Below, one piece after another: positions 17,385 to 36,726 of a stretch of 64,000 nt of DNA. How positions within the stretch are numbered: position 1 is the stretch's first letter; the number at the start of each line of letters is the position of its first letter. This DNA is from Oscillospiraceae bacterium (GTDB lineage: Bacteria; Bacillota; Clostridia; Oscillospirales; JAAYXM01): assembly GCA_017409405.1 (NCBI GenBank), contig JAFQSU010000075.1, positions 6,785-70,784 of the forward strand, read 5' to 3'. The notes beneath the pieces are model-generated. The model was not told the origin of the DNA. It did not search any database and saw only the letters and a list, made by a program, of their open reading frames with translations. The translations under genes and the position numbers were made by a program.

Positions 17385-18308
17385 ATGCTGTCCGTAATAA
17401 TTCCTGCATATAATGAGGAATTATCCGTAGAAAGAGCTTACTTTACAATATCGAAGATTTTAAAAGAAGCACAGATTGAAAATGAAATTATTTTTATTGA
17501 TGATGGCTCTACGGATACTACGTATGAAAAAATTAAAAAATTGGCCGATAAAGAAAAAAACATATGCGGACTGCATTTTTCAAGAAATTTTGGAAAAGAG
17601 GCAGCCATCTCAGCAGGACTTGCAAGTGCTTCCGGAGATTCTGTTGTAGTTATTGATTGCGACCTCCAACACCCTCCTGAGAAGATTGTCGAGATGTATC
17701 ATTTATGGCAGGAAGGATATGAAATTGTTGAGGGCATAAAAAAAGCAAGAGGAAAAGAAAGCAAAATGCATGGCTTTGCCTCAAGAAGATTTTATTCCAT
17801 TATCAGTTCGGTAGTTGGATTTGACATGTCAAATGCTTCTGATTTTAAACTGCTTGACCGCAAGGTTGTGGATATACTCAACAGAATTCCGGAAAGAAAG
17901 GGCTTCTTCAGAGCGATTTCATTTTGGGTGGGATTTAACAAAACAACGGTTGAATTCGAGGTTAATGAAAGACTTGAAGGCGAATCAAAATGGTCTGCCA
18001 TAGGACTTTTTAAATATGCTGTTTCAAACATTTCCGCCTACTCAACAGCACCAATGCAGATTGTAACGGTGCTTGGCGTGATGATGCTTATTATTACTGC
18101 TGTTTTCAGCGTTTGGGCACTTATTGATAAAATCCGTGGTATTGCCCTCGAGGGTATGACAACTGTAATCATTATCCTGATATTTATAGGAAGTATCATG
18201 ATGATTAGTCTTGGCATTATAGGATATTATGTTGCCCGTATTTATGATGAAATTAAAGGAAGACCGAAATATATTATTTCTTCATCTTGCAGGAGCAAGG
18301 AGGATTAA
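17385..18308 (+). CDS. GtrB-like GT2 polyprenyl-phosphate glycosyltransferase
   Basis: SVIIPAYNEE, IFIDDGSTD and DCDLQHPPE motifs plus two C-terminal TM helices, the GtrB/DPM1-like architecture. Confidence 0.8.
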   Translation: MLSVIIPAYNEELSVERAYFTISKILKEAQIENEIIFIDDGSTDTTYEKIKKLADKEKNICGLHFSRNFGKEAAISAGLASASGDSVVVIDCDLQHPPEKIVEMYHLWQEGYEIVEGIKKARGKESKMHGFASRRFYSIISSVVGFDMSNASDFKLLDRKVVDILNRIPERKGFFRAISFWVGFNKTTVEFEVNERLEGESKWSAIGLFKYAVSNISAYSTAPMQIVTVLGVMMLIITAVFSVWALIDKIRGIALEGMTTVIIILIFIGSIMMISLGIIGYYVARIYDEIKGRPKYIISSSCRSKED

Positions 18309-18332
18309 AAAACAGTTTCAAGGAGGTGTAAT

Positions 18333-19337
18333 ATGGAAAGAAACGTGCTTGTTGACAGACTGAAAGGATATGCCTGTTTTTTGGTACTGCTTGGTCATGT
18401 TATTATGGGTATAAGAGTGGCAGGCATAGATACCCCCGGTTTTTTGTGGGGAATGGAAAAGTTTATTTGGTCTTTCCATGTTGCACTTTTTCTGTTTTTG
18501 AGCGGTGTCGTGTATAAAGTTACCGGAGAGTGGAAAAGCAAGAAAACCAAATGCGGATTTATTCTATATAAGCTTTACAATCTCGGCATTCCATATATAG
18601 CTTTTTCAATTGTTTATATATTGATAAACAGCTTAGTTGGAGAAGCCAATACCGGTTTTGCCCCATCAGATATTCTGAATATATGGAAAACCCCTGTCGC
18701 CCAATATTGGTATCTTTATGCACTATTCTTTTTGTTTTGTATCTGGACAGCTTTTTCGGGGTTATTAAAAAATTGGCAAATTACAATTATAGCTGTTTTA
18801 ATTGGCTATTTGGCACCGATTTTTCGCATTCCGCTTGGAAGCCTGGATGTGGTATTTTATTCGGCACTTGCTTTTGGAATCGGCACATTTGTAGATTTCG
18901 AAAGCCTTACCAAGCTCTCACCGCTGACTAAATGCTTGGTTGTGATACTGCATATAGTAACAGGTATTATGTTTATTTTGCTAAACAAAATAGATGCTCC
19001 GTTCATAAAGGAAATAATGATACTGTTTGGAATATATTCAAGCATTATGTTTATTTCTATTCTCCGGAACTGTAAGTATATTGCTCATTTTCTCGACTTT
19101 ATAAACAAATATTCTTTTCAGATTTATTTGTTACACACCATATTTACTGCCGGAACGAGAATAATCCTGCTTCGCTTGAATATAACCAAGTGGTGGATTC
19201 ATATTCTTTTGGGAACTGCCCTCGGATTAGCATTTTCGGTGTTAGCGGCAGAAATTGCAAAGAAAGTTAAGTGTTTGAATTTCTTTTTCTTTCCGTCAAA
19301 AGCTTATGCATTGAAGAATACTGATTTTAAAAGCTAA
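18333..19337 (+). CDS. Acyltransferase family 3 membrane protein (polysaccharide O-acyltransferase)
   Basis: VDRLKGYACFLVLLGHV N-terminal motif, about 10 TM helices, last gene of the operon. Confidence 0.75.
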   Translation: MERNVLVDRLKGYACFLVLLGHVIMGIRVAGIDTPGFLWGMEKFIWSFHVALFLFLSGVVYKVTGEWKSKKTKCGFILYKLYNLGIPYIAFSIVYILINSLVGEANTGFAPSDILNIWKTPVAQYWYLYALFFLFCIWTAFSGLLKNWQITIIAVLIGYLAPIFRIPLGSLDVVFYSALAFGIGTFVDFESLTKLSPLTKCLVVILHIVTGIMFILLNKIDAPFIKEIMILFGIYSSIMFISILRNCKYIAHFLDFINKYSFQIYLLHTIFTAGTRIILLRLNITKWWIHILLGTALGLAFSVLAAEIAKKVKCLNFFFFPSKAYALKNTDFKS

Positions 19338-19370
19338 GTCGGGTCTTATTGTTGTGCGATAACTTTATTT

Positions 19371-19412
19371 AAACCCTCTGAGACGACAAAATGTTGTCTC
19401 AGAGGGTTTTTC
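19371..19412 (+). terminator. Rho-independent terminator of the polysaccharide operon
   Basis: AAACCCTCTGAGAC (19371-19384) pairs perfectly with GTCTCAGAGGGTTT (19396-19409), followed by a T run. Confidence 0.85.
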
Positions 19413-19649: not shown

Positions 19650-20441
19650 GTGGTCAGGATTGATGACAGGATAAATTTGCAATATGTATCGGCAGGTCTC
19701 TTTTCTACATCTCAGCAGTGGATTCATCCGCGACGAATAATTGACAGTTATGAGATAATATATGTCACTCGCGGAAATGTGCATATTGAAGAGGACGGTG
19801 TAGAGTACAGCTTGAAAAGCGGCGACGTTCTTCTTTTGCGTCCGGGAGTGCTTCATACAGGCAGCCGCATGAGTGAGGGTGAGGTCGAATTTTTCTGGGT
19901 TCATTTTATCACGGATGATATTGATTATTTTTGTCTTGACAAGGTCACTTCTGCCCGGGGTGAGTATATAACACTAAACTTATTCCGGGGGCTTCTGCAC
20001 ATAGCAAATACAGTGTCGATGCCTGAATATGCAAGGGATTTGTCTTGCGGAAGTATAATTGCCCATCTTGCATCAATGGGAAATGGGAAAGAGGCGGCAT
20101 CAACGACGGTCTTTTCCAAAATTTCAGAGTGGGTGCGTATGAATATTCGTCAGAACATGAAGGTTCGCGACATTGCGGAGATGTTCGGATACAATAAAAC
20201 GTACATAAGCCGATTGTTCAAGAAACATTCGGGGTTGACATTGAAAGACTATATAGATAAAGAGCGTATAAATTGTGCGAAAGAGCTCCTTTTGACCACT
20301 GATACAAGTGTGAAGGATATTGCGTATGAGCTGGGTTTCGGGGATGAAAATCTGTTTGTTAAATTCTTTAAGTACCATGAAAAAATGTCACCCACAAATT
20401 TTCGGAATATGTACTTTAAAATACATATGAACAATAAATAA
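19650..20441 (+). CDS. AraC-family transcriptional regulator (cupin sensor + HTH)
   Basis: GTG start after GGAGGTGAAG. The C-terminus has the paired AraC HTH (VRDIAEMFGYNKTYISRLFKK ... VKDIAYELGFGDENLFVKFFK). Confidence 0.85.
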   Translation: MVRIDDRINLQYVSAGLFSTSQQWIHPRRIIDSYEIIYVTRGNVHIEEDGVEYSLKSGDVLLLRPGVLHTGSRMSEGEVEFFWVHFITDDIDYFCLDKVTSARGEYITLNLFRGLLHIANTVSMPEYARDLSCGSIIAHLASMGNGKEAASTTVFSKISEWVRMNIRQNMKVRDIAEMFGYNKTYISRLFKKHSGLTLKDYIDKERINCAKELLLTTDTSVKDIAYELGFGDENLFVKFFKYHEKMSPTNFRNMYFKIHMNNK

Positions 20442-20601: not shown

Positions 20602-22422
20602 ATGCAAAAAGCTCAGCACATAACGTTTACGGAGCTTTCTTTTGGTGACGGCTTTTGGAAAAAACGTCAGGAAATAAACCGAACAGTTACGGCAGGTGCG
20701 GTATATGAAAGATTCAGAGATACGGGCAGGTTTGATGCGCTTGCATGCAAGTGGAAAGAGGGTATGCCCAACAAGCCGCATGAATACTGGGACAGCGATG
20801 TTGCCAAATGGATAGAGGGTGTTGCGTACATAACTGCACGCAGCCGCAACGCAGAACTTGAAAAAATTGTTGACGACACGGTTCGGGAAATTGAAAAGAA
20901 CATGTTGCCGTGCGGATACTTCAACTCATATTACATAACGCTTTTCCCCCAAGACAGATTCACGAACAGAAACAATCATGAGCTGTATTGCCTCGGCCAT
21001 TTTATAGAGGCTGCCATTGCGTACAAAAATGCTACAGGCAAGGATAAGCTTTTGCAGCTTGTGATAAAGTATGTTGATTATGTTGAACGTGTCTTTGTGA
21101 AAGAAAAAAGTGCCGGATTCTTCACTCCCGGACATCAGGAGATAGAGCTTGCGCTGTTTAAGCTCTATAAAGAAACGGGCGAGGTAAGATATTTAAAGCT
21201 TGCATCCTGCTTCTTGGAAGAGCGTGGACGGCACAGCGAAAGTCTTAATCTCCCCGAGTTTCCCGATATAGAGTTTCAGAGTCACAAGCCGGTACGTGAG
21301 CAGACAGAGGCTGTCGGTCACTGTGTGCGCGCTCTTTACATGTACGCGGCGATGGCAGATGTTGCAGGAGAAACGGAAGATGCAGAGCTCGGTTCAGTCT
21401 GTAAAACACTTTTTGACGATATAGTGACGAAAAAGATGTACATTACGGGCGGCGTCGGTTCTGACAGATACGGTGAAAGGTTCACCCATGCGTACGATTT
21501 GCCGAATGATGTTGCATATACGGAAACGTGTGCCGCCATTGCACTGATCTATTTTGCACGGCGCATGTCCGAGCTTGAAACAGATTCAAAGTATGCCGAT
21601 GTCATAGAGCGTGTTTTGTACAATGGCATGCTTTCGGGCGTATCGCTTGACGGAAAAAGGTTTTTCTATACAAATCCGCTCGAAACAGACCCGAGACTCC
21701 TTTCACGGTATGACATTTATGATGAGGCTCCGACATATCAGCCCATACAGCAGCGTGTTGAGGTGTTTGAATGTTCATGCTGTCCTCCGAATATTCTGCG
21801 GTTTATAGCCTCGGTTGAAGAATATTTCTATTCCTTCTCGGATGACACTTGTTTTGTGAATCAGTTTGCATCCGGCACACTCACACACGGGGACGTAAAA
21901 ATAACACAAAATACGGAATATCCGCGAAACGGTGAGATTAAGTTTTCCGTCTCGGGTGAGCTTGAAAAGCTTGCTATCAGAATTCCCGGCTGGTGTGAGA
22001 GCTTTGTGATTGACAGACCGTATGTGATGAAAAACGGATATGCATATATCGAAAAGCCGCAGGGGGAGATTAACCTGAGCTTTGAGATGGAACCGTTCCT
22101 TGTTCAGTCAAACCCCAATGTGACGGAAAACGGCGGCAGGGTTGCATTGCAGCGCGGCCCCATCGTATATTGCGGTGAAGGTCTGCCGGGAACAAATCTT
22201 CGCAGTATGCGGATTGTCAGCGACAGCTTTGATGAGCGGTATGACGAAAAAATCGGTGCAGTCGTTTTGACGGGTAAGCTTGAATGCGATAAGGATGACG
22301 GAGCTTTCGGGCTGTACCGCAAATATGCCGCACCGAAGGATATCGCAGAGGTTGAATTTATCCCTTATTACGCTTTTGCAAATAATGGCGAGCGTGAAAT
22401 GCTCGTTTGGTTTAATGTTTAA
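20602..22422 (+). CDS. Glycoside hydrolase family 127 (beta-L-arabinofuranosidase-like, DUF1680)
   Basis: 606 aa with no signal peptide. YTETC and, 81 residues later, ECSCCPPN match the spacing of the Glu/Cys zinc site and cysteine nucleophile described for HypBA1-type GH127. Confidence 0.8.
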   Translation: MQKAQHITFTELSFGDGFWKKRQEINRTVTAGAVYERFRDTGRFDALACKWKEGMPNKPHEYWDSDVAKWIEGVAYITARSRNAELEKIVDDTVREIEKNMLPCGYFNSYYITLFPQDRFTNRNNHELYCLGHFIEAAIAYKNATGKDKLLQLVIKYVDYVERVFVKEKSAGFFTPGHQEIELALFKLYKETGEVRYLKLASCFLEERGRHSESLNLPEFPDIEFQSHKPVREQTEAVGHCVRALYMYAAMADVAGETEDAELGSVCKTLFDDIVTKKMYITGGVGSDRYGERFTHAYDLPNDVAYTETCAAIALIYFARRMSELETDSKYADVIERVLYNGMLSGVSLDGKRFFYTNPLETDPRLLSRYDIYDEAPTYQPIQQRVEVFECSCCPPNILRFIASVEEYFYSFSDDTCFVNQFASGTLTHGDVKITQNTEYPRNGEIKFSVSGELEKLAIRIPGWCESFVIDRPYVMKNGYAYIEKPQGEINLSFEMEPFLVQSNPNVTENGGRVALQRGPIVYCGEGLPGTNLRSMRIVSDSFDERYDEKIGAVVLTGKLECDKDDGAFGLYRKYAAPKDIAEVEFIPYYAFANNGEREMLVWFNV

Positions 22423-22445: not shown

Positions 22446-23492
22446 ATGAAGAAGATAAGAATCGGACTTGTAGGATGCGGAAACATGATGAGCTTCCACA
22501 TGAATGGTGTAAACAAGGTTGAGGGACTTGAGGTTGTTGCAATCTGTGATACGAATGAGGCAAACATGGCAGAGGTTGCAAAGGTTCTTGATAATCCGTT
22601 CTGCACAACGGATTACCGTGAGATGGTGGATAAGATTGATGCAATCCTCATTGCATTACCGCATCACCTTCATTTCCCCTGCGGCATGTTTTTTGCACGC
22701 CACAAGAAGCATATTCTCATGGAAAAACCGCTTTGCAACACCGAAGAAGAATGTCTTCGCCTTATAAAAGAATGTGAAGACAACGAGGTTGTCCTTATGT
22801 GCGGTTATCCTGTCCGCTACATGCCCGGAATCCTCAAGCTCAAGGAAATGGTAGACAGCGGAGAATACGGCAAGATTATGCAGATGTCCGTCTGGACAGA
22901 ACAGCTTACAACCTGCACAGACCAGGACTGGGTAGGAACCTCCTGCCTTGGCGGCGGTCAGCTTTTCAGCCACGGCTGTCACTATATCGACCTTTTGCTC
23001 TGGTTCTGCGGAAACCCCGTTTCCGGTGCGCACTTCGGAACAAACGTCGGTACTCCGTGGATGCTCAAAGAGGGCACAAGTGCCGTTACAATGTCGTTTG
23101 AAAACGGTGCGATAGGATATCACGGTGCAACTTGGGGCGCAAGAGGTACCCGTATGGGATATGACTTCCAGATAATGATGGAAAAGGGACTTCTTGAATA
23201 TGACCACCAGACGGGTGAGGTCAAGGTGTACGACAAGACAAAGCTTCATAAGCCCGGCGAGCTTGATCACAGCGCAGGCGATTATGAATTGATTTGTAAA
23301 TATGAAGGCAACGACGGCAAGCAGACACAGTATGAAATGTCGCACTTTGTTGATTGCATAGTAAACAAAAAGAAGCCGTTTACCGACGGACTTTCAGCAC
23401 TGAAGGGACTTCGTGTAATATGGGAGCTCTACAACGCAGAAAACAATCATACGCTTGCAGATCTGCGCGGTATGGGACTATCCGAAGAATAA
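22446..23492 (+). CDS. Gfo/Idh/MocA-family NAD(P)-dependent oxidoreductase
   Basis: IGLVGCGNM Rossmann motif and ILMEKP motif, no signal peptide, 23 nt after the GH127 gene. Confidence 0.8.
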   Translation: MKKIRIGLVGCGNMMSFHMNGVNKVEGLEVVAICDTNEANMAEVAKVLDNPFCTTDYREMVDKIDAILIALPHHLHFPCGMFFARHKKHILMEKPLCNTEEECLRLIKECEDNEVVLMCGYPVRYMPGILKLKEMVDSGEYGKIMQMSVWTEQLTTCTDQDWVGTSCLGGGQLFSHGCHYIDLLLWFCGNPVSGAHFGTNVGTPWMLKEGTSAVTMSFENGAIGYHGATWGARGTRMGYDFQIMMEKGLLEYDHQTGEVKVYDKTKLHKPGELDHSAGDYELICKYEGNDGKQTQYEMSHFVDCIVNKKKPFTDGLSALKGLRVIWELYNAENNHTLADLRGMGLSEE

Positions 23493-23507: not shown

Positions 23508-26102
23508 GTGAAAAAGAATCATTTTTTACGCATCTTTAGCATAGCATTTGTTATTTGTATGGCAGTTGCCTTACTGCCGACCGTTTTTGCGTCAGATACG
23601 GAATATGCGATGTCGGGCATTACGGTGCAGTATTCTTTCGATAAGCAAGATTATCAGTCACTGACAACAGGAAAAGAAATAAGCTATTTAAATACAAGCG
23701 GAAGAGTACAATACGATTCATTTTACGGCACAAAGCCGGTTGTTGATAATTTCGGATGGTTCCGAAATGCGATGAGTCTCTATATACTTGAGGGACAGTA
23801 TTATGCATTCAGAATACGAATTCCGAATGCCGGGTGGTATGCTGTAAGTGTAGGATACAACACTCACAGCAGTGCAACGCAGGGTGAAATGTATATACTT
23901 CCAAGTACAACGACGGACATAGCAGCAACACTAAAAAAGGAAGATCCTGTTCTTACAGTAAACTTCAATGGAGTTGATTCGCTGCAAACAGCAGCAATTC
24001 CGTTTACAACTGATACTAAGCTGTTTAAAGCTGAAGCTGCCGGAGAATATTATCTGGTATGGACGGGGACCGGAACGACAAATGCACAGAATCGCCATTA
24101 TTTACTTCCTCGTCTTGTAACACTCAATGGTGGGGATGAAGCTCCGGTTGTTATGTATGCTGAAAGTGAACTTTCAAAAAATACTATAGATTCAATTATC
24201 GGTGAAACGGCTACAATTTCGACAACAACGGCAAAGATGAGTGATGGTACAGACGCTACAGCCACTGATATTGAAAAGCTTACGTATGTAAGCTCGGACG
24301 TCAATATTGCTACTGTATCAGGTAACACGGTAACTGCAGTTTCAAAAGGCAATGTGAAGATTTACACAATGAGCGGAGATTTGAAAGTTGCCGAAAATGA
24401 AATCACAGTTGAAATGAGTGAGATTGTAAAATCAGGAATTACGGTAAAGTATTCTTTTGATAAGCAAGATTATCAGTCACTGACAACAGGAAAAGAAATA
24501 AGCTATTTAAACACCGGAGAAAGAATAGAGTACGATTCATTTTATGGAACAAAGCCGGTTGTTGATAATTTTTCCTGGTTTCGAAATGCTATGAGCCTCT
24601 ATATACTTGAGGGGCAGTACTATGCATTCAGAATACAAATTCCGAAAGCCGGATGGTATGACGTAAGTGTGGGATATAACACTCACAGCAGTGCAACGCA
24701 GGGTGAAATGTATATACTTCCAAGTACAACGACGGACATAGCAGCAACACTAAAAAAGGAAGATCCTGTTCTTACGGTCAACTTTAATGGAGTTGATTCG
24801 CCGCAAACAGCAGCAATTCCGTTTACAACTGATACTAAGTTGTTTGAAGCTGAAGCTGCCGGAGAATATTATCTGGTATGGACGGGGACCGGAACGACGA
24901 ATGCACAGAATCGTCATTACGTCCTTCCACGTCTCGTAACACTCAACGGCGGGGACAGTGCTGCTCTTATGGGAACTAAGATATCATCCGATAAAAGAGT
25001 TATAGCACTTGCCGGTGAGGAAACGGCACAGGTTACGGCGATAGGCTATCTTTCAACAACAGGTGAGGCTGTAGGTTTTACGTACAGTTCGGAAAACCCG
25101 TCTGTTGCAACAGTTTCTGCAGACGGTACCGTAACTGCGAAGAACGGCGGTGTTGCAAAGATTACTGCTACCTGCACAAACGCTGTTTCAGGAAACAACT
25201 CACTTTCGACCATGATTGTTGTTGATGAACCGTCAAACACCGTTTCTTTCGGTGCAGATTCAAACGTTAACGGCGTAAGTATAACAACAAATATCAGCGG
25301 ATACACACAAGGTGAAGTTACCTCGGTTTCTCTGGAAACACCCGTTACGGTCACTGCGAAAAAAACAGTGGATGACTATGTTTTCCGCGGCTGGGTTCGC
25401 GGCTCCGAAAGTGGAGGAAGATTCATCTCAAATGAGACCGAATACAGCTTCAATGCAATGAAAAACACATACCTTACAGCAATATACACACTCGCGGCAG
25501 ACAAAGAGTATTATGCATGGAACGGCGAGTTCCTCGGTACTGAGGAGCCGGAGGAACCCGAAGTTCTCGGATATGTCTTTGATGAATGGAAGCCGAGTGA
25601 GGATGCTGATGTAACACGTTATGTAGCACAGTATACGCAGGCTGCTGATGAGTACAACGTTACATATAACGGCGTTACGAATAAATACAAATTCAACGAT
25701 AAGGTCGTTCTCGAGTCGAACACAGCGGTATACTGGTACCGAAATGACAAGCTTGTGGACTACGGCACCGAATACACATTCTATGTATGGGATGATGCAA
25801 CGGTAAAGACATCTTCAGAGGGTCATGAGCTTCCGATAGTTGTGCTTGATGCAAAGGTTAAGGACAATAACTTTATGATTGAGTATGACAATGCAGGCAA
25901 GGAAATTGTTGAAGTAGGTATTCTTTTCGGCAATGCAGGTTCGGTACCCACCGTTTCCTCCTGCTATGAGAACATGAACTCACAGCGTGAAAATGTTTCT
26001 CACGGTCAGTTTACGGCACGTGCTGACCGATATACAAATGCGCGCGGATACCTCATATACAGGGACAGCGATGACAGCTTTAAAGTAATATACTCCGAAT
26101 AA
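23508..26102 (+). CDS. Secreted multidomain protein: 2 copies of an unassigned CBM-like module, Big_2-like Ig domains and InlB-B/Flg_new-like repeats
   Basis: Signal peptide ending VFA|SD. Two 174-aa modules lie 273 aa apart. Big_2-like segments (e.g. VSSDVNIATVSGNTVTAVSKGNVKIY). YVFRGW and GYVFDEW repeats. No anchor motif seen. Confidence 0.75.
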   Translation: MKKNHFLRIFSIAFVICMAVALLPTVFASDTEYAMSGITVQYSFDKQDYQSLTTGKEISYLNTSGRVQYDSFYGTKPVVDNFGWFRNAMSLYILEGQYYAFRIRIPNAGWYAVSVGYNTHSSATQGEMYILPSTTTDIAATLKKEDPVLTVNFNGVDSLQTAAIPFTTDTKLFKAEAAGEYYLVWTGTGTTNAQNRHYLLPRLVTLNGGDEAPVVMYAESELSKNTIDSIIGETATISTTTAKMSDGTDATATDIEKLTYVSSDVNIATVSGNTVTAVSKGNVKIYTMSGDLKVAENEITVEMSEIVKSGITVKYSFDKQDYQSLTTGKEISYLNTGERIEYDSFYGTKPVVDNFSWFRNAMSLYILEGQYYAFRIQIPKAGWYDVSVGYNTHSSATQGEMYILPSTTTDIAATLKKEDPVLTVNFNGVDSPQTAAIPFTTDTKLFEAEAAGEYYLVWTGTGTTNAQNRHYVLPRLVTLNGGDSAALMGTKISSDKRVIALAGEETAQVTAIGYLSTTGEAVGFTYSSENPSVATVSADGTVTAKNGGVAKITATCTNAVSGNNSLSTMIVVDEPSNTVSFGADSNVNGVSITTNISGYTQGEVTSVSLETPVTVTAKKTVDDYVFRGWVRGSESGGRFISNETEYSFNAMKNTYLTAIYTLAADKEYYAWNGEFLGTEEPEEPEVLGYVFDEWKPSEDADVTRYVAQYTQAADEYNVTYNGVTNKYKFNDKVVLESNTAVYWYRNDKLVDYGTEYTFYVWDDATVKTSSEGHELPIVVLDAKVKDNNFMIEYDNAGKEIVEVGILFGNAGSVPTVSSCYENMNSQRENVSHGQFTARADRYTNARGYLIYRDSDDSFKVIYSE
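23616..24137 (+). repeat. Unassigned 174-aa module, copy 1 (coding repeat)
   Basis: GITVQYSFDKQDY...PRLVTLNGGD. Hand alignment to copy 2 gives 12 differences in 174 residues with no gaps. Confidence 0.9.
24435..24956 (+). repeat. Unassigned 174-aa module, copy 2 (coding repeat, 819 nt downstream of copy 1)
   Basis: GITVKYSFDKQDY...PRLVTLNGGD. It contains a 98-nt run (24678-24775) identical to 23859-23956. Confidence 0.9.
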
Positions 26103-26171
26103 GTTTGAACGAATGCGGGGCGCGAAGAGTTATCTCCGCGTCCTGCGGCTATAAATACAGGGAGGAATATA

Positions 26172-29100
26172 ATGAAAAGAATTCTATCGGCACTGCTTAC
26201 GCTGTGCATGGTTATTTCAATGCTTCCGGCAGTGAATATTGCCGAAGCGGTTGAGCCGTCCGGCGTAAAGGTTATTTACCCGATGTGGCAGGATTCGTAT
26301 TTTGAAGAGGGAAGAAGACTTAATCCGGCAGAAATTGATTATACCGTAAGCGGTGGACGTATTTCGTGGCATGAGTTTACCGGAACGGTTACGGGCAGTG
26401 CTGCATGGGGCTTAGGTTCCCTTTCGATATATCTCAGAAAAGATGAATACGCGGCATTTAAAATCAAGGTACCGGCATCGGGGTATTATGATATAAAGCT
26501 CGACTACGGAAGTACGGCCGATAAAACATACGCAACAGGCGGTGCGATGTATTTCCTGCCCGGAGACACTTCAGACATAGCAACGGCGCTTCTGACTGCA
26601 ACACCTGTCATGACCGTTGATTTTGCAGGCGAGGTAACAACTGCATGGGGTGACTTTGATAAGTATTACAAGGGCATGGCAAACAATGTTCCGTCAAAAA
26701 CGGTTGAGGATAAAGACCTCGACGCAGGGGAGTACATTGTGGTCTGGACAGGATATGGTGAAATTAAGGGAGGAAGATATTTTCTCCGCCCTGCTACAAT
26801 GACTCTTGACGGCGGACCGGGGAAGGCATCCATGTATGCGGAAAGCACGCTTTCAAAGGCAAAGCTTAATTTAAAATCTGCCACTACCGCATACATCTCC
26901 ACCTCGAAGGTAGTAATGAGTGACGGAACATCAGGTACGGCACAGGATATTTCCTCCCTTACATACTCAAGCTCGGACGAAAGCATTGTGACCGTGTCGG
27001 AGAATAAGATTACCGCAGTTTCCGAAGGAGAAGCGAAGGTATATACAAAAAGTAACGACCGAATCATAGCAGAGGATAAAATTACGGTTGAAAACCGTGA
27101 TGTTGAAATGTCGGGCATCACGGTTAAATATCCTTTTGACAAGCAGGACTACATGACCCTCGCTACAGGAAAAGAAATAAGCTATCCCAACAGCGGCGGA
27201 AGAGTAAAATACGATTCATTTTACGGCACAAAGCCGGTTGTTGATAATTTTGCATGGTTTCGAAATGCTTTAAGCCTCTATATACTTGAGGGACAGTATT
27301 ATGCATTTAAGATACAAATCCCGAAAGCCGGAGGGTATAACGTAAGCGTCGGATACAACACACATAGCAGTGCAACTGCCGGTGAAATGTATATTCTTCC
27401 AACGACAACCTCGGATATTGCAGGAACACTGAAACAGGAGATTCCGGTTGCGACGATAAACTTTAAAGGTATAGACAGTGAACAGACCGCGGCTATTCCG
27501 TTTACAACAGAAAACCTCTTTTTTGAGGCTGAAACTGCCGGTGAATATTATCTGGTATGGAAGGGAACGGGAGAGACGAATAAAGACAATCGCCATTATT
27601 TGCTCCCACGTCTTGTAACGCTTGACGGAGGGGACGGCACTGTTCCGACATATACATTGTTCAAGTTATCAAAAGCGCTCAGACCGAGTGTTGAGATTAT
27701 AATGAGTGACGGCTCTGTCGTTGATGGGAACAAGCTCGGCGTTGTTTATGAGTCGTCCGATGAAACCATACTTCGCCAAAATCCGAAAACCGGCAAGTTT
27801 GAAACTCCGGGAACAGGTTTGGTAGAAGTGACTGCAACGGTTGAGTATCAGGGGAAAAAGTATTCTGCGACTGTTGAGCGCATGATTACGGGTAATGAAA
27901 TTCTTCCGTTCAGCGGAAAATTTGTAAAGTATGATTTTTCTGAGAAGAGTGTATTCTGGACGCCTGTTTACTGGCAGGGAGAGGACAAGCCAAAGGCAAA
28001 CGATATTCGTGGCATAACATATGAATACACATCAAATACCGGAGAGGACGGTAACTGGGAGTGGTGTGACAGCTCAATTCCCGGAATTTATACAGATGCA
28101 GGAAAGAACTTAGCGGTACAGACGTTTGTTGCCAAGGATGTCAACGGACATATGCGCATCGGTATAAGCAAAGACAAATGGGTTGCCTTGAGAATAAAAG
28201 TGCCGGCGGCAGGAAGATATTTCGGCACTGCAGTTTACCGTAAAAACTATTCCGGCAGAGTTGCGGCAGGCATATATATTCTCCCCGGAGATGTTGAGGG
28301 GACGAACAACATAGAAGCCGCACTCACTGAAGATAACTACATAGGATTGTTTGATTGTAATGACCCCGAGGAGCTTTCGGCTTCGCTTGATTCTTCGCAT
28401 TACTTTGATGTGGATATATCTGATGAGTACATCAATGACAGTGGCGAATGCATACTTGTATTCAAAGCTCTCGGCGGCGGTTACTTTGATGTCAAGTCTC
28501 TGTCGCTTGACGGCACAGAGGGTATGAAAACCGTTGACCTGTCAGTTGACTCCGAAAAAATCGAAGTAGGAGCAAGAGAAAAGCTTAACGTAAAGGCACG
28601 TCTTCTTGATGAGTCTGTTATTGACAGCAGCGAGATTTCTGTAAAATACACCTCATCCGCATCGAACATAGCAGAGGTTTCCGACGATGGCTTTGTTACA
28701 GGTATTTCAGAAGGAAGTGCGGAAATTTCTGCAAAAGTATCGTACAACGGAACAAAAATAACTGCCCATACAACTGTTTATGTTCAGGATACAAGCGATA
28801 TAAAATCAACTGAGCTTGCAGTTGAAGAGGTTATGTTTGTAAATGCGAGAAAACGCATAAGATTCAATGCTGAGACAGAAAAGAAAAGCATTCTTGAAAT
28901 CCCCGTTTCGGAATATAAGCTTGACTGTGACCCGGTTGGAATTGCGTATGTGGATGATGACGGGTATATAAACGCAATGAGCGAAGGTACGGTTACGCTT
29001 GAGGTGTTTGCAGATTACCGCGGAAACTCGGGTCTGTACGGAAAAGCTGAGATAACTATCCTTGATAGCGGAAGCAAAACGGAAGTTACAGCTTTCACCC

Positions 29101-32100
29101 AGGACATGCGCGAAACGGCACTTGAAAATGCAGAGAAGTATGACTGGGCGAAAAAAGAACAAAAAGCGTGGAGAGACCGTGCGGATACATATGTCGAAAA
29201 TCTCGACTTCTTCTATGACCATATAGTGGGAGAGGGAATTCCACGAGTGCAGAAGATGGGAACTTACAACAACCCCGACTACAAGTACTGCAATTACTGC
29301 GGCGAGGATATTGTTGCGAAGTACGGAAACGACGGCTCGTATGCATATACGGTTAATTTCATGGGGCGTCCGTGGAAAATTCAGTGTCCTTCCTGCAAGC
29401 GTCAGTTCCCTTCAAACGACTTTGCAAGCTTTTACGAGCTTGGACTTGATGCGCAGGGACTGTTTGATTTAAAGCTTGCGCGTGAAAATCACCATAAAAT
29501 GCTTTTCCATACCGATGACAGCCCGTGTGAGCATGTTGCTCCGTCGGAGGAATATTCTTCCGAGTGGTATGAGTATTACGGTTATGGAAATACAGACGGA
29601 TATCTTTACAACGAGCTGTATACCGAGCTATGGAAAGACACGTCGGCAAAAACCTATAACACAGACCCCAATCCGAGAAAAGAAAACCGTTATGTTGACG
29701 GTTTGATGTGGGGAGTAGATGATGGATTCGGATATATTCCTAGAGATGCGACAGGAAAGCAGTATACTCATGCAGACGGAAAAAATGAGATGCATACCCC
29801 TGTTGCGCTGTACAACGGAACAACGTGGTTCCAGGATATAAGAGCTGCAATAACAAGACTTACGAATGCGTATCTGTATACAGGAGAAGAAAAATACGGC
29901 AGAGCCGGAGCGATTCTCCTTGACCGAATTGCAGACGTCTACCCGGATATGGATTTATTCAAGTACTTTAAAGTATACTGGCCGAACACTTCTACCGGCG
30001 ACGGCGCGATTCTCGGAACAGTTCAGGACGTTAACTTCGGGCAGAATTTTGCAGATGCGGCAGATGCATTTTTCCCGAGACTAAAAGATGAATTTGTATA
30101 CAAATACCTTTCTGCGAAGGCAGAAACATTTTCGCTTAAAAACAAAAAGGAAAGCGCATATGATATCTGGAAGAACTGGGAGGAAAATCTCCTTCAAGAG
30201 AACTTCCGAAAAGTAAAAAGCGCAGACCTCAGCGGAAACTTCGGTATGCATCAGGTTGTTCTCATAAAAACAGCACTTGCAATAGGAAACGAAGCAGACA
30301 GCGAAGAGATGCTTGATTATCTGTACAAAACAGGCGGATATCAAGGATATATGTCATTCTCCATTACAGGAGGAAATGTCTCTAACACGATTGTGGCAGA
30401 AACCGACCGCGACGGATTTGCATACGAATCATCACCTCAGTACAATTATTTTACTCCCGACGGCTTGCTGATGATTGCAAATTCTCTTGCATTGTACAAG
30501 GGAAAGAATGCAGAAAAGTATGATATAATAAAAAATCCGAAATTTGCACAGATTGTGACGAGTATGTCGGAGTTGGTAGTGAGTGACAGCCACACAATTC
30601 AGCTTGGAGACTCTCAGGGTATGGCGACACTCGATTTCGTGGATTCGGCAGATGACATGGTGCTTGCATTCAAATATCTTAAGAAAACACCTGTTGCCGA
30701 AAAAATAGCAAAACAGATATATTTGCTTAAAAACGGTGATGTTTCGGATTTACACTACGATATATTCACTCAAAATCCCGAAAGTATCGCCGAGGAAGTA
30801 GAAGCGTTAGCAAGCAACATTGAAAAACCAAAGAGCAAAATTCTTACGGGCTTCGGTCTTGCAATGCTTCACGACGGAGAACGCTACGAAGCGATCAGCC
30901 AGAACGGAACAAACAATTCGTTGCGTACATTCTGGATGTATTCGGGCTGGGGAGATTCGGGACATCATCAGCTTGATTCGCTTAATATAGGAATCGAAGC
31001 ATTTGGACTCAATCTTTCCCCTGATAACGGTTACCCCGAGGCTGCAGGAAGTGATCCGAACAGAGTGCAGTGGGTTGAAACAACCTTAGCCCACAACTCC
31101 GTTACAGTCGATGAGGATGTTCAGAACAGAACGCTTGAATCAGGCGACCCACTTCACTATGACGGTGACGGCAGGGTTAAGCTTATCGATATGAGAAGCG
31201 AAGAAAGTTATCCGCATCTTGATGAATACCGAAGGACACTTGTTATGATTGAAGCTCCGGGGGATATCAGCTACGGTGTTGATTTCTTTAACGTTCAGGG
31301 CGGAACAAGTCACATTTACAGCTTCCATGCACAGTCTGAACAGGCGCAGACAGAAGGTCTTGATATAGTGCCGCAGATAAAGGATGGTGCGTATTCAGGC
31401 TCATATGCAGGCGTTGATGTTCCGGGATTTAAGCAAGACCCCGGAACTCCGGATTCAAGCCTTTTCTATCCCAAAGGATATACATGGCTCAAAAATCTTG
31501 ACCGTGCAGCAGACCCTCAGGGCGACTTTTCCATAGATTTCGCTATTACCGATTACAACAAAGCGATACAAGATAACAGGGATATCCACCTGCGTATGAC
31601 TCAATTGGCGGAAGTTGGGGCTGAATTTACCGAAGTTACGGTTGCTGACGGATATGTGCCGAATAAGCAGGTAAACAAGAACATTCCGAGGGGTATCAAA
31701 TATGCCCTTGTAAAGCGAGAAGGACAAAACCTCAAGAGCTTGTTCACGACTGTTTTTGAACCGTATCGCGGAGAACGGTATGTTAAGAAAATTACACCGG
31801 TGGAAATGATGCCCGTTCCCAAACAGGGGAAAGCAAGAGCGGTATGTGTTGAGCTTGTAAACGGTCAGAAGGACTATATTGTATACTCGACAGATAATAC
31901 CGTGAAATACAATGTGGGCGGAGTGTTTGAGTTCCGCGGCTTTGTGGGAGTATATTCAGTTGATAAGAATAATAAAAATGTTTATTCTTACATAAATGAC
32001 GGAGACGTTATTGGTACAAGCACACAGCTTGAAAAAGAGTATAGCGGAACTGTTGCAGATTTCAGTCGCGAGAACTCGTATAACAACTATATAACACTCA

Positions 32101-33362
32101 ATATGCAGGCAGATAAAGTCTCAGAGTTTGCCGGAAAAATTGTCAGAATCAAGAATGACGGAATTCAGAACGGAGCATATCTGATTGAAAGTGCCGAGCC
32201 GATTTCCGACACACAGGTAAAGCTTAACATCGGGCTTGTGACAACAATCCGCAAATACGTGGATGAAGATGACTTCGCAAAGGGGTATGTCTACAACATA
32301 AAAGAGGGGCAGACCGCTGTAATTGCGATGTCGCATGAGCAGGACTTCGCACCGAGATTTGCAGGATTGGAAACAACGCCGTCGGTGTCTGCAGGAAGCA
32401 CTATCTCGGTACAGCTTGCCGCAAAGAGCGACGACCCGGATGCCCGGATTTCCTACATCGGCACATCCTTGCCGAGAGGTGCAAGTATAGATTCCGATAC
32501 AGGAGTGTTTACATGGAAACCGTCAGCAAGTCAGGTGGGTGACAATCATGTTGCGATAACTGCACGTGACAATTACGGACGTGAATCAATAATACACTTT
32601 ATCGTCGCGGTATATGGCTCGACAACGAACTCTACACCTGCAGAACCCGACACACCGTCAGGTGGCGGCGGTGGAGGTGGCGGCGGCGCCGCACCTGCCC
32701 CCGACACAGACGAGAATACCGATATCCCGTCAGATGACGAAACCACACAACCTGAAGGAGACGACAACACTTCTGTAGGGGAGGGTGTCCTTGCCCTCCC
32801 GTCGGTTGGATTCACCGACCTCGGCAACCACGCCTGGGCGGCTGACGCCATAGCAGAGCTTTCGGAAAAGGGTATTATCAAAGGGACATCTGACACCACC
32901 TTCTCACCGGCAAGCAATATCACACGAGCAGATTTTGCACTTCTTCTTGTTCGCGCATTCGGGCTTGAGAGTGAGAATGCCGAAAACTTCGCGGATGTTA
33001 ATGAGTCCGACTACTTTGCCCGTGAGCTTGCGATAGCGAGAAATAACGGTATCGTCGGCGGTATAGGCGATAACAAGTACGCACCGCGTAACACCATAAC
33101 CCGTCAGGATATGATGGTAATCATCTATCGCGCAATAGCCTCCATTGTGCAAAGGGAGGGGGACCGCTCCGCGGTGGAGGGATTGTCTGTCCTGAAATAT
33201 GAGGACTTCGACTCCGTCGCACCTTACGCAAAAGACGCAGTCGCGGCACTCATCTCAGCAGGGCTTGTCAACGGCAAGAACGGACGTATTGCACCGACCG
33301 ATTACACAACCCGTGCAGAGGTCGCAGTACTTATCAAGCGCATTTTAGACTATACAAAATAG
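26172..33362 (+). CDS. Giant (2396 aa) SLH-anchored cell-surface protein with a heparinase II/III-like polysaccharide-lyase-type core
   Basis: Signal peptide (AEA|VE), three copies of the unassigned module, about 4 Big_2-like domains and a lyase-like core. The core carries GHHQLDSLNIGIEAFGLNLSPDNGYPE...LAHNSVTVDE. It is followed by a cadherin-like/He_PIG-type Ig domain, a Gly/Pro/Asp linker and three SLH repeats. Confidence 0.85.
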   Translation: MKRILSALLTLCMVISMLPAVNIAEAVEPSGVKVIYPMWQDSYFEEGRRLNPAEIDYTVSGGRISWHEFTGTVTGSAAWGLGSLSIYLRKDEYAAFKIKVPASGYYDIKLDYGSTADKTYATGGAMYFLPGDTSDIATALLTATPVMTVDFAGEVTTAWGDFDKYYKGMANNVPSKTVEDKDLDAGEYIVVWTGYGEIKGGRYFLRPATMTLDGGPGKASMYAESTLSKAKLNLKSATTAYISTSKVVMSDGTSGTAQDISSLTYSSSDESIVTVSENKITAVSEGEAKVYTKSNDRIIAEDKITVENRDVEMSGITVKYPFDKQDYMTLATGKEISYPNSGGRVKYDSFYGTKPVVDNFAWFRNALSLYILEGQYYAFKIQIPKAGGYNVSVGYNTHSSATAGEMYILPTTTSDIAGTLKQEIPVATINFKGIDSEQTAAIPFTTENLFFEAETAGEYYLVWKGTGETNKDNRHYLLPRLVTLDGGDGTVPTYTLFKLSKALRPSVEIIMSDGSVVDGNKLGVVYESSDETILRQNPKTGKFETPGTGLVEVTATVEYQGKKYSATVERMITGNEILPFSGKFVKYDFSEKSVFWTPVYWQGEDKPKANDIRGITYEYTSNTGEDGNWEWCDSSIPGIYTDAGKNLAVQTFVAKDVNGHMRIGISKDKWVALRIKVPAAGRYFGTAVYRKNYSGRVAAGIYILPGDVEGTNNIEAALTEDNYIGLFDCNDPEELSASLDSSHYFDVDISDEYINDSGECILVFKALGGGYFDVKSLSLDGTEGMKTVDLSVDSEKIEVGAREKLNVKARLLDESVIDSSEISVKYTSSASNIAEVSDDGFVTGISEGSAEISAKVSYNGTKITAHTTVYVQDTSDIKSTELAVEEVMFVNARKRIRFNAETEKKSILEIPVSEYKLDCDPVGIAYVDDDGYINAMSEGTVTLEVFADYRGNSGLYGKAEITILDSGSKTEVTAFTQDMRETALENAEKYDWAKKEQKAWRDRADTYVENLDFFYDHIVGEGIPRVQKMGTYNNPDYKYCNYCGEDIVAKYGNDGSYAYTVNFMGRPWKIQCPSCKRQFPSNDFASFYELGLDAQGLFDLKLARENHHKMLFHTDDSPCEHVAPSEEYSSEWYEYYGYGNTDGYLYNELYTELWKDTSAKTYNTDPNPRKENRYVDGLMWGVDDGFGYIPRDATGKQYTHADGKNEMHTPVALYNGTTWFQDIRAAITRLTNAYLYTGEEKYGRAGAILLDRIADVYPDMDLFKYFKVYWPNTSTGDGAILGTVQDVNFGQNFADAADAFFPRLKDEFVYKYLSAKAETFSLKNKKESAYDIWKNWEENLLQENFRKVKSADLSGNFGMHQVVLIKTALAIGNEADSEEMLDYLYKTGGYQGYMSFSITGGNVSNTIVAETDRDGFAYESSPQYNYFTPDGLLMIANSLALYKGKNAEKYDIIKNPKFAQIVTSMSELVVSDSHTIQLGDSQGMATLDFVDSADDMVLAFKYLKKTPVAEKIAKQIYLLKNGDVSDLHYDIFTQNPESIAEEVEALASNIEKPKSKILTGFGLAMLHDGERYEAISQNGTNNSLRTFWMYSGWGDSGHHQLDSLNIGIEAFGLNLSPDNGYPEAAGSDPNRVQWVETTLAHNSVTVDEDVQNRTLESGDPLHYDGDGRVKLIDMRSEESYPHLDEYRRTLVMIEAPGDISYGVDFFNVQGGTSHIYSFHAQSEQAQTEGLDIVPQIKDGAYSGSYAGVDVPGFKQDPGTPDSSLFYPKGYTWLKNLDRAADPQGDFSIDFAITDYNKAIQDNRDIHLRMTQLAEVGAEFTEVTVADGYVPNKQVNKNIPRGIKYALVKREGQNLKSLFTTVFEPYRGERYVKKITPVEMMPVPKQGKARAVCVELVNGQKDYIVYSTDNTVKYNVGGVFEFRGFVGVYSVDKNNKNVYSYINDGDVIGTSTQLEKEYSGTVADFSRENSYNNYITLNMQADKVSEFAGKIVRIKNDGIQNGAYLIESAEPISDTQVKLNIGLVTTIRKYVDEDDFAKGYVYNIKEGQTAVIAMSHEQDFAPRFAGLETTPSVSAGSTISVQLAAKSDDPDARISYIGTSLPRGASIDSDTGVFTWKPSASQVGDNHVAITARDNYGRESIIHFIVAVYGSTTNSTPAEPDTPSGGGGGGGGGAAPAPDTDENTDIPSDDETTQPEGDDNTSVGEGVLALPSVGFTDLGNHAWAADAIAELSEKGIIKGTSDTTFSPASNITRADFALLLVRAFGLESENAENFADVNESDYFARELAIARNNGIVGGIGDNKYAPRNTITRQDMMVIIYRAIASIVQREGDRSAVEGLSVLKYEDFDSVAPYAKDAVAALISAGLVNGKNGRIAPTDYTTRAEVAVLIKRILDYTK
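26259..26817 (+). repeat. Unassigned module, diverged copy A (N-terminus of the giant protein)
   Basis: The same landmarks appear in the same order: hydrophobic-Y-P start, YAAFKIKVPASGYYDIKLDYG, AMYFLPGDTSDIATAL, AGEYIVVWTG, RYFLRPATMTLDGG. Confidence 0.65.
27114..27635 (+). repeat. Unassigned module, copy B (giant protein)
   Basis: GITVKYPFDKQDY...PRLVTLDGGD. It is 174 aa and gap-free against copies 1 and 2, roughly three-quarters identical by hand count. Confidence 0.9.
27908..28513 (+). repeat. Unassigned module, diverged copy C (giant protein)
   Basis: FVKYDFSEKS..., WVALRIKVPAAGRYFGTAVY, GIYILPGDVEGTNNIEAAL, ECILVFKALGGGYFDVKSLSLDG; longer loops than the other copies. Confidence 0.55.
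29090..31900 (+). other. Lyase-like catalytic core (helical N-terminal part + heparinase II/III-like C-terminal part)
   Basis: The Hepar_II_III-like signature lies around 30960-31130 (HHQLD ... D-x-G-Y-P ... AHNSVTVD). The upstream segment looks helical (RLTNAYLYTGEEKYGRAGAILLDRIADVYP). Boundaries are approximate. Confidence 0.6.
32380..32615 (+). other. Cadherin-like / putative Ig (He_PIG-type) domain
   Basis: LPRGASIDSDTGVFTWKPSASQVGDNHVAITARDNYG pattern. Confidence 0.55.
32808..33350 (+). other. Three tandem S-layer homology (SLH) repeats
   Basis: FTDLGNHAWAADAIAELSEKGIIKG...ITRADFALLLVRA; FADVNESDYFARELAIARNNGIVGG...ITRQDMMVIIYRA; FDSVAPYAKDAVAALISAGLVNG...TTRAEVAVLIKRI. Confidence 0.85.
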
Positions 33363-33376: not shown

Positions 33377-34921
33377 ATGAAAAAGCGTATACTGTCTTTA
33401 TTACTTGCAACACTCTTGTTTTTATCCCTTGCGGCTTGTAACGAACAAGCCCCGAACGAAACTGCCGCAAACAATGATCCGCTTACAAAAGACGATGTCA
33501 TAACAATGGTCATTAACTCAAGTGCAAGCTGGCCGTTTCAGGAAGATTGGAAAATCTGGGATTATATAGAAGAGATAAGCGGTGCAACACTTGATGTAAC
33601 GGCAATTATAACTGATGCAGATGCAAAATACGCAACTATGTTTGCATCCCCCGACACGCTTCCTGATATTGTCGGTTTTTCACATAAGACCGGTACGGAT
33701 AAGTTTGTTATTCAGGGCGCACTCAAATCACTTGATGAAATGAAAGAGTATATGCCGAACTATAATTCATGGGTTGATTCGCTTTCTGAAGAAGAGGTAA
33801 AAAATGTTATAAATACACGCAAAGCGTATGACGGAAAAATATATGCTGCCCCGATTACGGGAAGAGAAAAGTCGCAGGGTCTCCGTGCATGGCTCTATCG
33901 TAAGGACATTTTTGACAAACACAATATCAAGACACCTGAAACTTTTGATGAGCTTTATGAAGTATGTAAGCAGTTAAAAGAAATTTATCCCGATTCTTAT
34001 CCCTTTAGTGCAAGAAACGGTATTTACATGCTTGATGCTCAGGCACCGTCGTGGAAGCCGTACTGGAATACTCAGGAATACTATGATTACAACAGCGAAA
34101 AATGGTGCTATGGTGCTTCTGAAGACGTGCTTCTTGATATGCTGACCTTCTACAAGCGTATGATTGATGAAAAGCTTATGCCGTCTGACTTCATGACGAT
34201 TTCCACCACTTCGTGGAGTGAACTTGTAACGACCAACCGCGGATTTATTATGCCGGAGTATCAGACGCGTATAGACTATTTTAACTCTCTTGCCCGTTCA
34301 AATATTGAAGGGTTTGACGTTACTGCCATGGTACCGCCTGTTGCCGATGCAGATAACGGAATGTCAATGATGAACAAGTATAACATTGACCCGATGGCGG
34401 TTGTAATGTGCAACACCGGTGACGAAGAACGGATGGCAAAGGCTGCAAAGTTCCTCGATAGTTTCTATACTGATGAAGCAATGGAGCTTCTCTCTTGGGG
34501 TAAAGAGGGAGAAACATACGAAATTGCAGACGGAAAGAAAAAATTTATCACGGATGAAAACGGAACGCAGGCAAGCACGCTTTACGGAATATCTACATAT
34601 GCAACGTTCACACGCATGGATCCCGAGGCTGTTCTTGCTTTTGAGTCTGAGGATATAGCAAGAACCCGTGATATGGTTATCGAACACACACTTCCCAATG
34701 CAAACCCGAATCTCTGGATAGCATTCACCCCCGAGGAACAAAAGATTTTTGTTGAGTATCAGATGGCTTTGCGTAATTATGCAACAGAAATGATATCTAA
34801 GTTCCTCCTCGGTCAGGAGCCGCTTTCGGCGTTTGATAAGTTCCAGGAAACACTTAAAACAGAGTTCGGACTTGAAGAATATCTTGCAGTTCATGAGTCT
34901 GCATATGCAAGGATCAAATAG
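33377..34921 (+). CDS. Lipoprotein, family-1 extracellular solute-binding protein of an ABC sugar importer (no cognate permease genes nearby)
   Basis: Lipobox LSLAAC. The ~500-aa size and W/Y-rich composition are typical of Firmicutes oligosaccharide SBPs. RBS GAGGAGG upstream. Confidence 0.75.
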   Translation: MKKRILSLLLATLLFLSLAACNEQAPNETAANNDPLTKDDVITMVINSSASWPFQEDWKIWDYIEEISGATLDVTAIITDADAKYATMFASPDTLPDIVGFSHKTGTDKFVIQGALKSLDEMKEYMPNYNSWVDSLSEEEVKNVINTRKAYDGKIYAAPITGREKSQGLRAWLYRKDIFDKHNIKTPETFDELYEVCKQLKEIYPDSYPFSARNGIYMLDAQAPSWKPYWNTQEYYDYNSEKWCYGASEDVLLDMLTFYKRMIDEKLMPSDFMTISTTSWSELVTTNRGFIMPEYQTRIDYFNSLARSNIEGFDVTAMVPPVADADNGMSMMNKYNIDPMAVVMCNTGDEERMAKAAKFLDSFYTDEAMELLSWGKEGETYEIADGKKKFITDENGTQASTLYGISTYATFTRMDPEAVLAFESEDIARTRDMVIEHTLPNANPNLWIAFTPEEQKIFVEYQMALRNYATEMISKFLLGQEPLSAFDKFQETLKTEFGLEEYLAVHESAYARIK

Positions 34922-36509: not shown

Positions 36510-36726
36510 TATACATCCCTCCCATACGATTTGGATGGTGAACGTCGCTCTTCTATATAATACCACTTTTTTCTTTGACGCACAATAAAAAGTCAAAAAA
36601 AGACACAATTGATGCAATTATATTTATTTTATTATGATTGTTATTCGTGTTATACTTATGGAGTAAGGCTCAGATTTGTGCTTGGCAAAAATACAAAAAA
36701 GACAAACGTGAAAAGGAGAGCTGTTT

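Follow-up and report, generated by a model that had tools for sequence, protein, structure and literature searches.

In a 64,000-nucleotide stretch of DNA from an uncultured gut Oscillospiraceae bacterium (assembly GCA_017409405.1, contig JAFQSU010000075.1, positions 6,785 to 70,784 of the forward strand), referred to here as the window, two adjacent genes encode exported proteins, A and B, that together carry five copies of one module. Judged from its sequence and from a structural model, the module appears to represent a lineage-restricted and so far unnamed family of β-sandwich domains of about 175 residues. It is a distant member of the superfamily that holds the carbohydrate-binding modules (CBMs) of families 6, 35 and 36, and lies outside those families as currently modelled. 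We consider it fairly probable that the module is glycan-binding, a divergent and unclassified branch of the CBM6/35 superfamily, and that it targets the wall-anchored, lyase-like protein B and its non-catalytic partner A to a glycan. It is a plausible new CBM family, not a new kind of biology. The module is unannotated in the public records of both proteins: B (MBQ2841022.1, from an Oscillospiraceae metagenome-assembled genome, MAG) is named 'S-layer homology domain-containing protein', and the cluster of A 'Ig-like domain-containing protein'.

Three of the copies (A1, A2 and B2; coordinates and identities of all copies are given in Table 1) align over 174 aa without a gap, and every landmark motif quoted for them in the original prediction, which was made from the sequence alone, was found in this alignment. 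The two further copies that it had described as diverged, B1 and B3, are genuine, as both were recovered by blastp and as full-length matches to an independent profile. This profile was built from 59 homologous modules, none of them taken from the window, and it recovered all five copies as full-length domains with independent E-values (i-E) of 1e-27 to 1e-42 (Z = 1e6). B3 carries an insertion of about 35 aa ('DIRGITYEYT..GNWEW'). Chance similarity or low-complexity repeats as the cause of the copies are ruled out by the blastp and profile E-values and by the ratios of non-synonymous to synonymous substitution rates (dN/dS). No sixth copy was found in a six-frame scan of the whole 64 kb window. 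The borders proposed for the diverged copies needed small corrections: for B1 the start was right, but 26259-26817 comprises 559 nt and the in-frame end is 26816, while for B3 the start at 27908 was out of frame (19 stops) and the correct range is 27909-28514.

Each copy had also been said to be followed by a Big_2-like Ig domain, so that module and Ig domain would form the repeating unit. This description fits the alternating architecture of both proteins, and three of the five spacers reached the gathering score of Big_2 (PF02368, 22.8 bits), but B-s1 fell just short of it and B-s2 had no Pfam match. The DNA-level repeats (23613-24147, 24432-24966 and 27111-27645) have the borders of the module, and the spacers are only 28-53% identical among themselves; the recently copied or homogenised unit is therefore the module by itself, and 'module plus Ig' as a unit of recent duplication was rejected.

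An AlphaFold2 model of copy A1, calculated from an alignment of 64 family sequences, superseded a first model based on the five window copies only, which had a predicted local distance difference test score (pLDDT) of 74. With a pLDDT of 94.5 and a predicted template modelling score (pTM) of 0.91, the module is a discrete, confidently folded domain in the newer model, made of twelve strands and two short helices. Foldseek searches of the PDB with both models gave the same neighbours, with E-values of 1.6e-4 to 4e-3, template modelling (TM) scores of 0.45-0.62 on the target and identities of 9-17%. They include the CBM6 of β-agarase (2cdo/2cdp; E 3.4e-4, TM 0.58-0.62 on the target), CBM35 domains (2w1w, 2vzp and 3zm8; probability 0.99-1.0, TM 0.45-0.62 on the target) and the xanthan-binding module MiXBM (7ehg; E about 4e-4, TM 0.5-0.6 on the target), and also the CBM6 of CtXyl5A, a CBM36 (1w0n), CBM32 and a porphyran-binding CBM (8xmz).

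Weak sequence matches point to the same superfamily. Searched against PDB sequences, the family profile matched the CBM35 of cycloisomaltooligosaccharide glucanotransferase (CITase; 3wnl, E 0.0017) and the CBM35 of a GH31 enzyme (5x7o, E 0.006), and solved CBM6 chains followed at E 0.04-0.17 (2cdo at 0.04). The HMMER alignment with 3wnl spans only profile positions 20-97 and passes through the strand motif A-x-K-I-x-V-P-x-x-G-x-Y. When the CITase CBM35 fragment was compared with 150 family proteins, almost all of its matches fell within the module borders (the database was small and the E-values are indicative only). Compared with CBM6 and CBM35, the module has about 45 additional residues; it is extended at the N-terminus and contains a conserved helix (aa 102-108, Y-I-L-P-x-x-T-x-D-I-x-x-A-L). 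A PA14 domain, the only PDB match of a profile made from five sequences (E 0.56), disappeared with the deeper profile and was discarded. The resemblance to CBM6/CBM35-type β-sandwiches that had been read from the sequence pattern was thus upheld by the model, by the top Foldseek matches and by the profile matches, and we assign the module to this fold and superfamily (CBM6/35/36-like, galactose-binding-like) with high confidence.

That the module lies outside named families was likewise confirmed for Pfam and NCBIfam. None of the window copies, and none of 64 family modules, matched a Pfam family at curated cut-offs, and NCBIfam had nothing for the module; in particular, the gathering score of CBM35 (PF16990) was reached by no member of either set, and CBM6 (PF03422) gave no match in them. 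At E<0.01 there were sub-threshold matches to Golvesin_C (PF25275) in 6 of the 64 modules and to CBM_35 in two (best 2.4e-3), while PPC and Big_3 were matched by single members. Golvesin_C scored 22.6 bits in B and 14.9 in A1 against its cut-off of 31.6, with a best E-value of 5.9e-5 among the A-like proteins described below; other weak matches in the window copies were SusF_SusE, in A1 alone (E 0.13), and E2-E1mid in B3 (E 0.11). Golvesin_C is the CBM6-CBM35-CBM36_like_2 domain, which occurs in the xanthan lyase of Bacillus GL1 and in golvesin of Dictyostelium (PMC9166713). We found nothing relevant in the literature on the module family or on the A/B system. The word 'new' in the original prediction can stand in the sense of unnamed in Pfam and NCBIfam; the module has diverged within a superfamily that is already known, and 367 unannotated clusters that carry it exist in public databases.

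These clusters come from an exhaustive HMMER search, which covered 1.84 billion representatives (367 clusters at E<=1e-3, 169 at E<=1e-10). A word-index protein search with one 174-aa copy had returned no match although B is in that collection, which we ascribe to a limit of the index. The top 150 proteins contain 1-7 copies each, mostly two or three, and most carriers are 2000-3400 aa long. Among 20 giant relatives, Hepar_II_III_C was found in 13 (best E 8.1e-11), Big_2 in 13, SLH in 10, He_PIG in 10 and HL_N-beta (hyaluronate-lyase N-terminal) in 4; the modules always precede the lyase-like region and the SLH repeats in the sequence. The A-like proteins, which are shorter (about 800-930 aa), have Big_2, sometimes Flg_new or Flg_new_2, and nothing catalytic. 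The module is not confined to lyase-like proteins, since a further group (P0005, P0009, P0028 and P0036) carries up to 6 modules and either no catalytic domain or only weak β-propeller/SGL matches.

To place the family in genomes, one genome per GTDB species was scanned with the B-family alignment as query, which gave 349 relatives; a scan with protein A alone found nothing. The best 79 of the 349 loci were confined to 13 MAGs of uncultured bacteria (Oscillospiraceae, Eubacteriales or Clostridiales), in which the giant B-like proteins are extremely expanded; these MAGs were sampled from the rectum and caecum of goats, from the gut of Hadza people and from a sample labelled AS06. Among these 79, single MAGs contributed as many as 16 (SIG480), 15 (RGIG3057) and 12 (T1900044574) loci. 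In at least 13 of these loci an A-like gene lies directly upstream of a B-like gene.

The part of B that follows the modules resembles polysaccharide lyases (PLs) of the heparinase II/III type, a class with PL12, PL15, PL17 and PL21-type enzymes. Besides its Hepar_II_III_C match (Table 1), B weakly matches Alginate_lyase, and the Hepar_II_III_C score of the orthologue P0002 is 24.7 bits. Against PDB sequences, the B-family profile matched the polysaccharide lyase family 17 (PL17) alginate lyase AlgL17 (9irq, E 3.6e-9) as well as SLH structures of the S-layer protein Sap; a search with the lyase region of B as a single sequence gave nothing useful. Many His, Tyr, Asn and Asp residues of this region are invariant in B-like proteins. 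Inside it lies a four-Cys, zinc-ribbon-like insert, for which DZR and Zn_Ribbon_1 are sub-threshold: C1040, C1043, C1072 and C1075 (aa 1040-1075, 29289-29396) are invariant in 14 B-like proteins, and PL-type enzymes do not usually have such an insert. The linker that joins He_PIG to the SLH repeats of B (aa ~2144-2213, 32601-32810) consists of eight Gly followed by low-complexity sequence rich in Pro, Thr, Glu and Asp. In Pfam, protein A matches neither a catalytic domain nor an SLH anchor. Its C-terminal ~290 aa (aa 576-864, 25233-26099) show a weak match to Flg_new (Listeria-Bacteroides repeat) only, and a PDB sequence search with these 289 aa returned nothing useful; Flg_new or Flg_new_2 is significant in some A-like relatives. 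This region could serve for the attachment of A, which has no anchor of its own. Both A and B begin with a Sec-type hydrophobic leader that has an Ala-x-Ala-like end, as judged by eye from the sequence.

The copies also bear marks of selection and of homogenisation. Among the close copies dN/dS was 0.11-0.15, indicating strong purifying selection, and an aromatic-rich loop (aa 35-52, FYGTKPVVDNFxWFRNA) is identical in A1, A2 and B2 save at one position. A and B aa 3-488 are colinear and share 53% identity, and A1 is 93% identical to A2 and only 41% identical to its positional counterpart B1. Other A-like proteins show the same trend, with module identities of 94% (P0003) and 80% (P0004) within a protein and 37-50% between proteins. 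Because the identity within proteins is far above that between them and the DNA repeat ends at the module borders, these sequence comparisons suggest repeated gene conversion within genes, confined to the module, by which the two modules of A-like proteins stay alike. In B, each module resembles the module at the same position of the orthologue P0002 (B1 45%, B2 42%, B3 55% identity), so B1, B2 and B3 are distinct position subtypes. Among B-like proteins the modules share 26-31% identity, the lyase region 43% and the SLH repeats 62%; the modules are the fastest-evolving part of these proteins, as expected of specificity determinants.

The heparinase II/III-like (PL17-related) region of the partner protein, the SLH anchors and a locus with an AraC regulator, a glycoside hydrolase of family 127 (GH127) and a solute-binding protein together provide a glycan-targeting context for the module. 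In the mechanism that we propose, B would be tethered to the cell wall through its C-terminal SLH triplet and would bear the heparinase II/III-type, PL17-related lyase-like region, while some 960 N-terminal residues, comprising three modules and four Ig-type spacers, would form an arm that reaches outward, captures polysaccharide and holds the polymer at the enzyme. A, presumably co-transcribed with B, has two modules of the B2 subtype and may thus bind the same epitope, in the role either of a cross-linker or of a capture protein that is soluble or loosely attached. For the diverged copies B1 and B3, recognition of other features of this complex glycan is probable; B3 belongs to a conserved subtype next to the lyase region. 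GH127, the oxidoreductase and the solute-binding protein, controlled by AraC, would go on to process and import the products. The earlier suggestion that all copies have the same substrate is accordingly narrowed: it is reasonable for the three copies that are 78-93% identical, but the other two are only 25-41% identical and are position-specific subtypes.

Several observations weigh against glycan binding. The structural likeness to CBMs is modest (TM 0.4-0.6, E about 1e-4), with non-CBM jelly-rolls lower in the same Foldseek list (gingipain adhesin domains, ephrin receptors, MAM and Cry toxin domain III). The residues conserved throughout the family (Y6, Y24, P70, G73, Y75, G143, E144 and Y145) mostly occupy strand or core positions and are silent on a ligand site. 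The Hepar_II_III_C score of B lies under the gathering score of 24, which makes B a predicted lyase, and P0005 and the three proteins grouped with it have no recognisable carbohydrate-active domain.

Conservation at core or strand positions would also suit an inert stalk, in which β-sandwich modules and Ig spacers hold the lyase off the S-layer and bind no ligand; the regular alternation of modules and spacers agrees with such a stalk, as does a copy number of 1-7, which looks like an adjustable length. We regard a stalk as unlikely, since A has two modules yet no enzyme to space and no anchor. A spacer does not predict purifying selection on a loop either, and aa 35-52 are near-identical in three copies. 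The nearest structural and sequence relatives are moreover ligand-binding CBMs, and the modules outpace the rest of the protein in evolution and fall into position-specific subtypes.

The modules might instead be adhesin or receptor-binding domains for a target other than a polysaccharide (a host protein, a mucin peptide, the surface of another microbe, or B itself as the docking site of A), the family serving surface variation. Up to 16 paralogous loci in some MAGs and the homogenisation of the two modules of each A-like protein, which points to gene conversion, can be read in this way, and gingipain haemagglutinin/adhesin, ephrin-receptor ligand-binding and MAM domains are among the Foldseek matches; the family proteins without a carbohydrate-active domain fit as well. 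Such a role nevertheless seems improbable to us, given a polysaccharide-lyase-type domain in most giant relatives, a locus with GH127, a sugar-type solute-binding protein and AraC regulators, and module sequence matches that are mostly to CBM35, CBM6 and Golvesin_C and not to adhesins.

Finally, glycan binding could be right and the family nevertheless not new, if the module were a very divergent member of CBM35, of CBM6 or of a recent CAZy CBM family beyond Pfam, NCBIfam and the PDB. The profile matches to solved CBM35 domains, the sub-threshold Pfam matches to CBM_35 and Golvesin_C, and the common strand motif 'F-x-I/V-x-x-P-x-x-G-x-Y', typical of CBM6 and CBM35, lean this way. We give membership in an existing family little probability: no Pfam gathering score was reached and NCBIfam had nothing, the module shares 9-17% identity with solved CBMs, it has no sequence relative below E 1e-3 among PDB chains, and it is ~45 residues longer, with its extra N-terminal segment and the conserved helix at aa 102-108.

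A comparison with each relative in turn shows how far the likeness goes. CBM6, as in Aga16B, the β-agarase of Saccharophagus degradans (2cdo/2cdp), and in CtXyl5A (2y8k/5la2), has the jelly-roll core in common with the module and gives its best Foldseek matches, and it is attached to polysaccharide-degrading enzymes, often in several copies, as the module is to a predicted one; identity is only 11-17%, and CBM6 lacks the module's additional length, N-terminal extension and conserved helix. CBM35 (3wnl, 5x7o, 2w1w, 2vzp) is the closest relative at the sequence level, over '..F.I.aPeaGdY.l..rY', and its fold agrees, whereas the alignment is confined to the N-terminal ~80 positions and the gathering score is never met. 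Many CBM35s are characterised by calcium- and uronate-binding residues, which could not be recognised in the module. MiXBM, whose ligand is an acidic branched polysaccharide, is among the top Foldseek matches, but its identity to the module is 9-13% and there is no match at the sequence level. Golvesin_C, the commonest weak Pfam match, sits on a polysaccharide lyase (PMC9166713), as the module does on a predicted one, but it stays below its cut-off with ~40 residues aligned.

At the level of whole proteins, SLH-anchored multimodular carbohydrate-active enzymes (CAZymes) are known from Gram-positive fibre degraders such as Monoglobus, Paenibacillus and Caldicellulosiruptor. The architecture of B (a signal peptide, then putative binding modules, a putative catalytic domain and Ig domains, with three SLH repeats at the C-terminus) is presumably that of these CAZymes, from which B differs in its modules of an unnamed family, in a heparinase II/III-like region that holds a zinc-ribbon-like insert, and in the occurrence of at least 15 loci per genome. 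A bolder version of the glycan-binding reading is tentative and, in our estimate, rather doubtful: the module might found a new CBM family, with a binding geometry or ligand beyond those of CBM6/35/36, in an unrecognised system of S-layer-anchored, multi-CBM, heparinase II/III-like giants. Each giant would have a non-catalytic partner with two modules, at least 15 diversified loci per genome would serve a non-cellulosomal, non-Sus harvest of many acidic glycans, and gene conversion would keep the multivalent copies identical.

The hindguts of ruminants and humans harbour uncultured Oscillospiraceae in abundance, and little is known of how these bacteria specialise in fibre and glycans. Should the module prove to be glycan-binding, it would open a way into a large enzyme family that has so far gone unannotated; possible gains are a CBM family for CAZy and dbCAN, better annotation of loci resembling polysaccharide utilization loci in Firmicutes MAGs, and new glycan probes. 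With three near-identical copies divided between a wall-anchored, predicted enzyme and its unattached partner, the pair would also make a compact test case for multivalency and hand-over at a Gram-positive surface. Without glycan binding by the module, the finding is one more β-sandwich repeat in a surface protein.

The gene order around A and B is AraC, GH127, GFO/IDH/MocA oxidoreductase, A, B and solute-binding protein. Intergenic gaps are 14-69 nt from GH127 through the solute-binding protein gene, AraC and GH127 are separated by ~160 nt with a promoter-like site, and no strong + strand terminator was found inside the run from AraC to the solute-binding protein gene. No ABC permease genes adjoin the latter. 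A near-identical copy of the locus is present in one metagenome contig (L001), and an orthologous locus (L081) has the order AraC-GH127-A-like-B-like-B-like, so that the AraC-GH127-A-B cassette is kept in both.

Table 1. Positions of the modules, spacers, domains and genes in the window, with the matches and identities that characterise them.
Feature	Position	Strand	Details
Module copy A1	23616-24137	+	A aa 37-210; i-E 2.5e-41, independent profile
Module copy A2	24435-24956	+	A aa 310-483; 93% aa, 91% nt identity to A1; dN/dS 0.11
Module copy B1, diverged	26259-26816	+	B aa 30-215; blastp E 7e-26 against A1, 35% identity; independent profile i-E 2e-37
Module copy B2	27114-27635	+	B aa 315-488; 78-79% aa, 77-78% nt identity to A1 and A2; dN/dS 0.15
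Module copy B3, diverged, lyase-proximal subtype	27909-28514	+	B aa ~580-781; blastp E 1.6e-4, 25% identity; independent profile i-E 1.2e-27
Spacer A-s1, Big_2	24138-24434	+	25.9 bits
Spacer A-s2, Big_2	24957-25232	+	43.1 bits
Spacer B-s1, Big_2-like	26817-27113	+	21.8 bits, just under cut-off; 53% identity to A-s1
Spacer B-s2, Ig-like by pattern only	27636-27908	+	B aa 489-579; no Pfam match; 31-32% local identity to other spacers
Spacers B-s3 and B-s4	28515-29060	+	B-s3 Big_2, 31.2 bits; B-s4 Ig-like, no Pfam match
Lyase-type region of B	29061-32351	+	aa ~964-2060; Hepar_II_III_C (PF07940) 19.4 bits
He_PIG Ig domain of B	32373-32600	+	E 9.9e-9
Three SLH repeats (PF00395), C-terminus of B	32811-33359	+	Cell-wall anchor; E 7.2e-33, three stretches
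Protein A, 864 aa	23508-26102	+	Signal peptide, module, Big_2, module, Big_2, ~290-aa C-terminal region (open reading frame, Pfam)
Protein B, 2396 aa	26172-33362	+	Signal peptide, three modules alternating with Ig spacers, lyase-type region, He_PIG, linker, three SLH repeats (open reading frame, Pfam)
AraC regulator	19650-20441	+	Upstream gene of locus
GH127	20602-22422	+	Upstream gene of locus
GFO/IDH/MocA oxidoreductase	22446-23492	+	Upstream gene of locus
Extracellular solute-binding protein	33377-34921	+	SBP_bac_1, SBP_bac_8; starts 14 nt past B

Downstream of the locus (35691-40383) are two further AraC-type regulators, two Amidohydro_2 genes and one metallophosphoesterase gene. The first part of the window (1-19409) holds an exopolysaccharide (EPS)/capsule-type biosynthesis cluster, which contains Bac_transf, two GT4, GtrII, Wzy_C, four GT2, YdjC, an acyltransferase, a GGDEF protein and an EAL protein. 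A terminator with an 18-bp stem (19371-19409) forms the border between this low-GC cluster and the rest of the window. GC content is 36-37% in the cluster and 42-50% from 20 kb on, and this step suggests different origins for the two parts.

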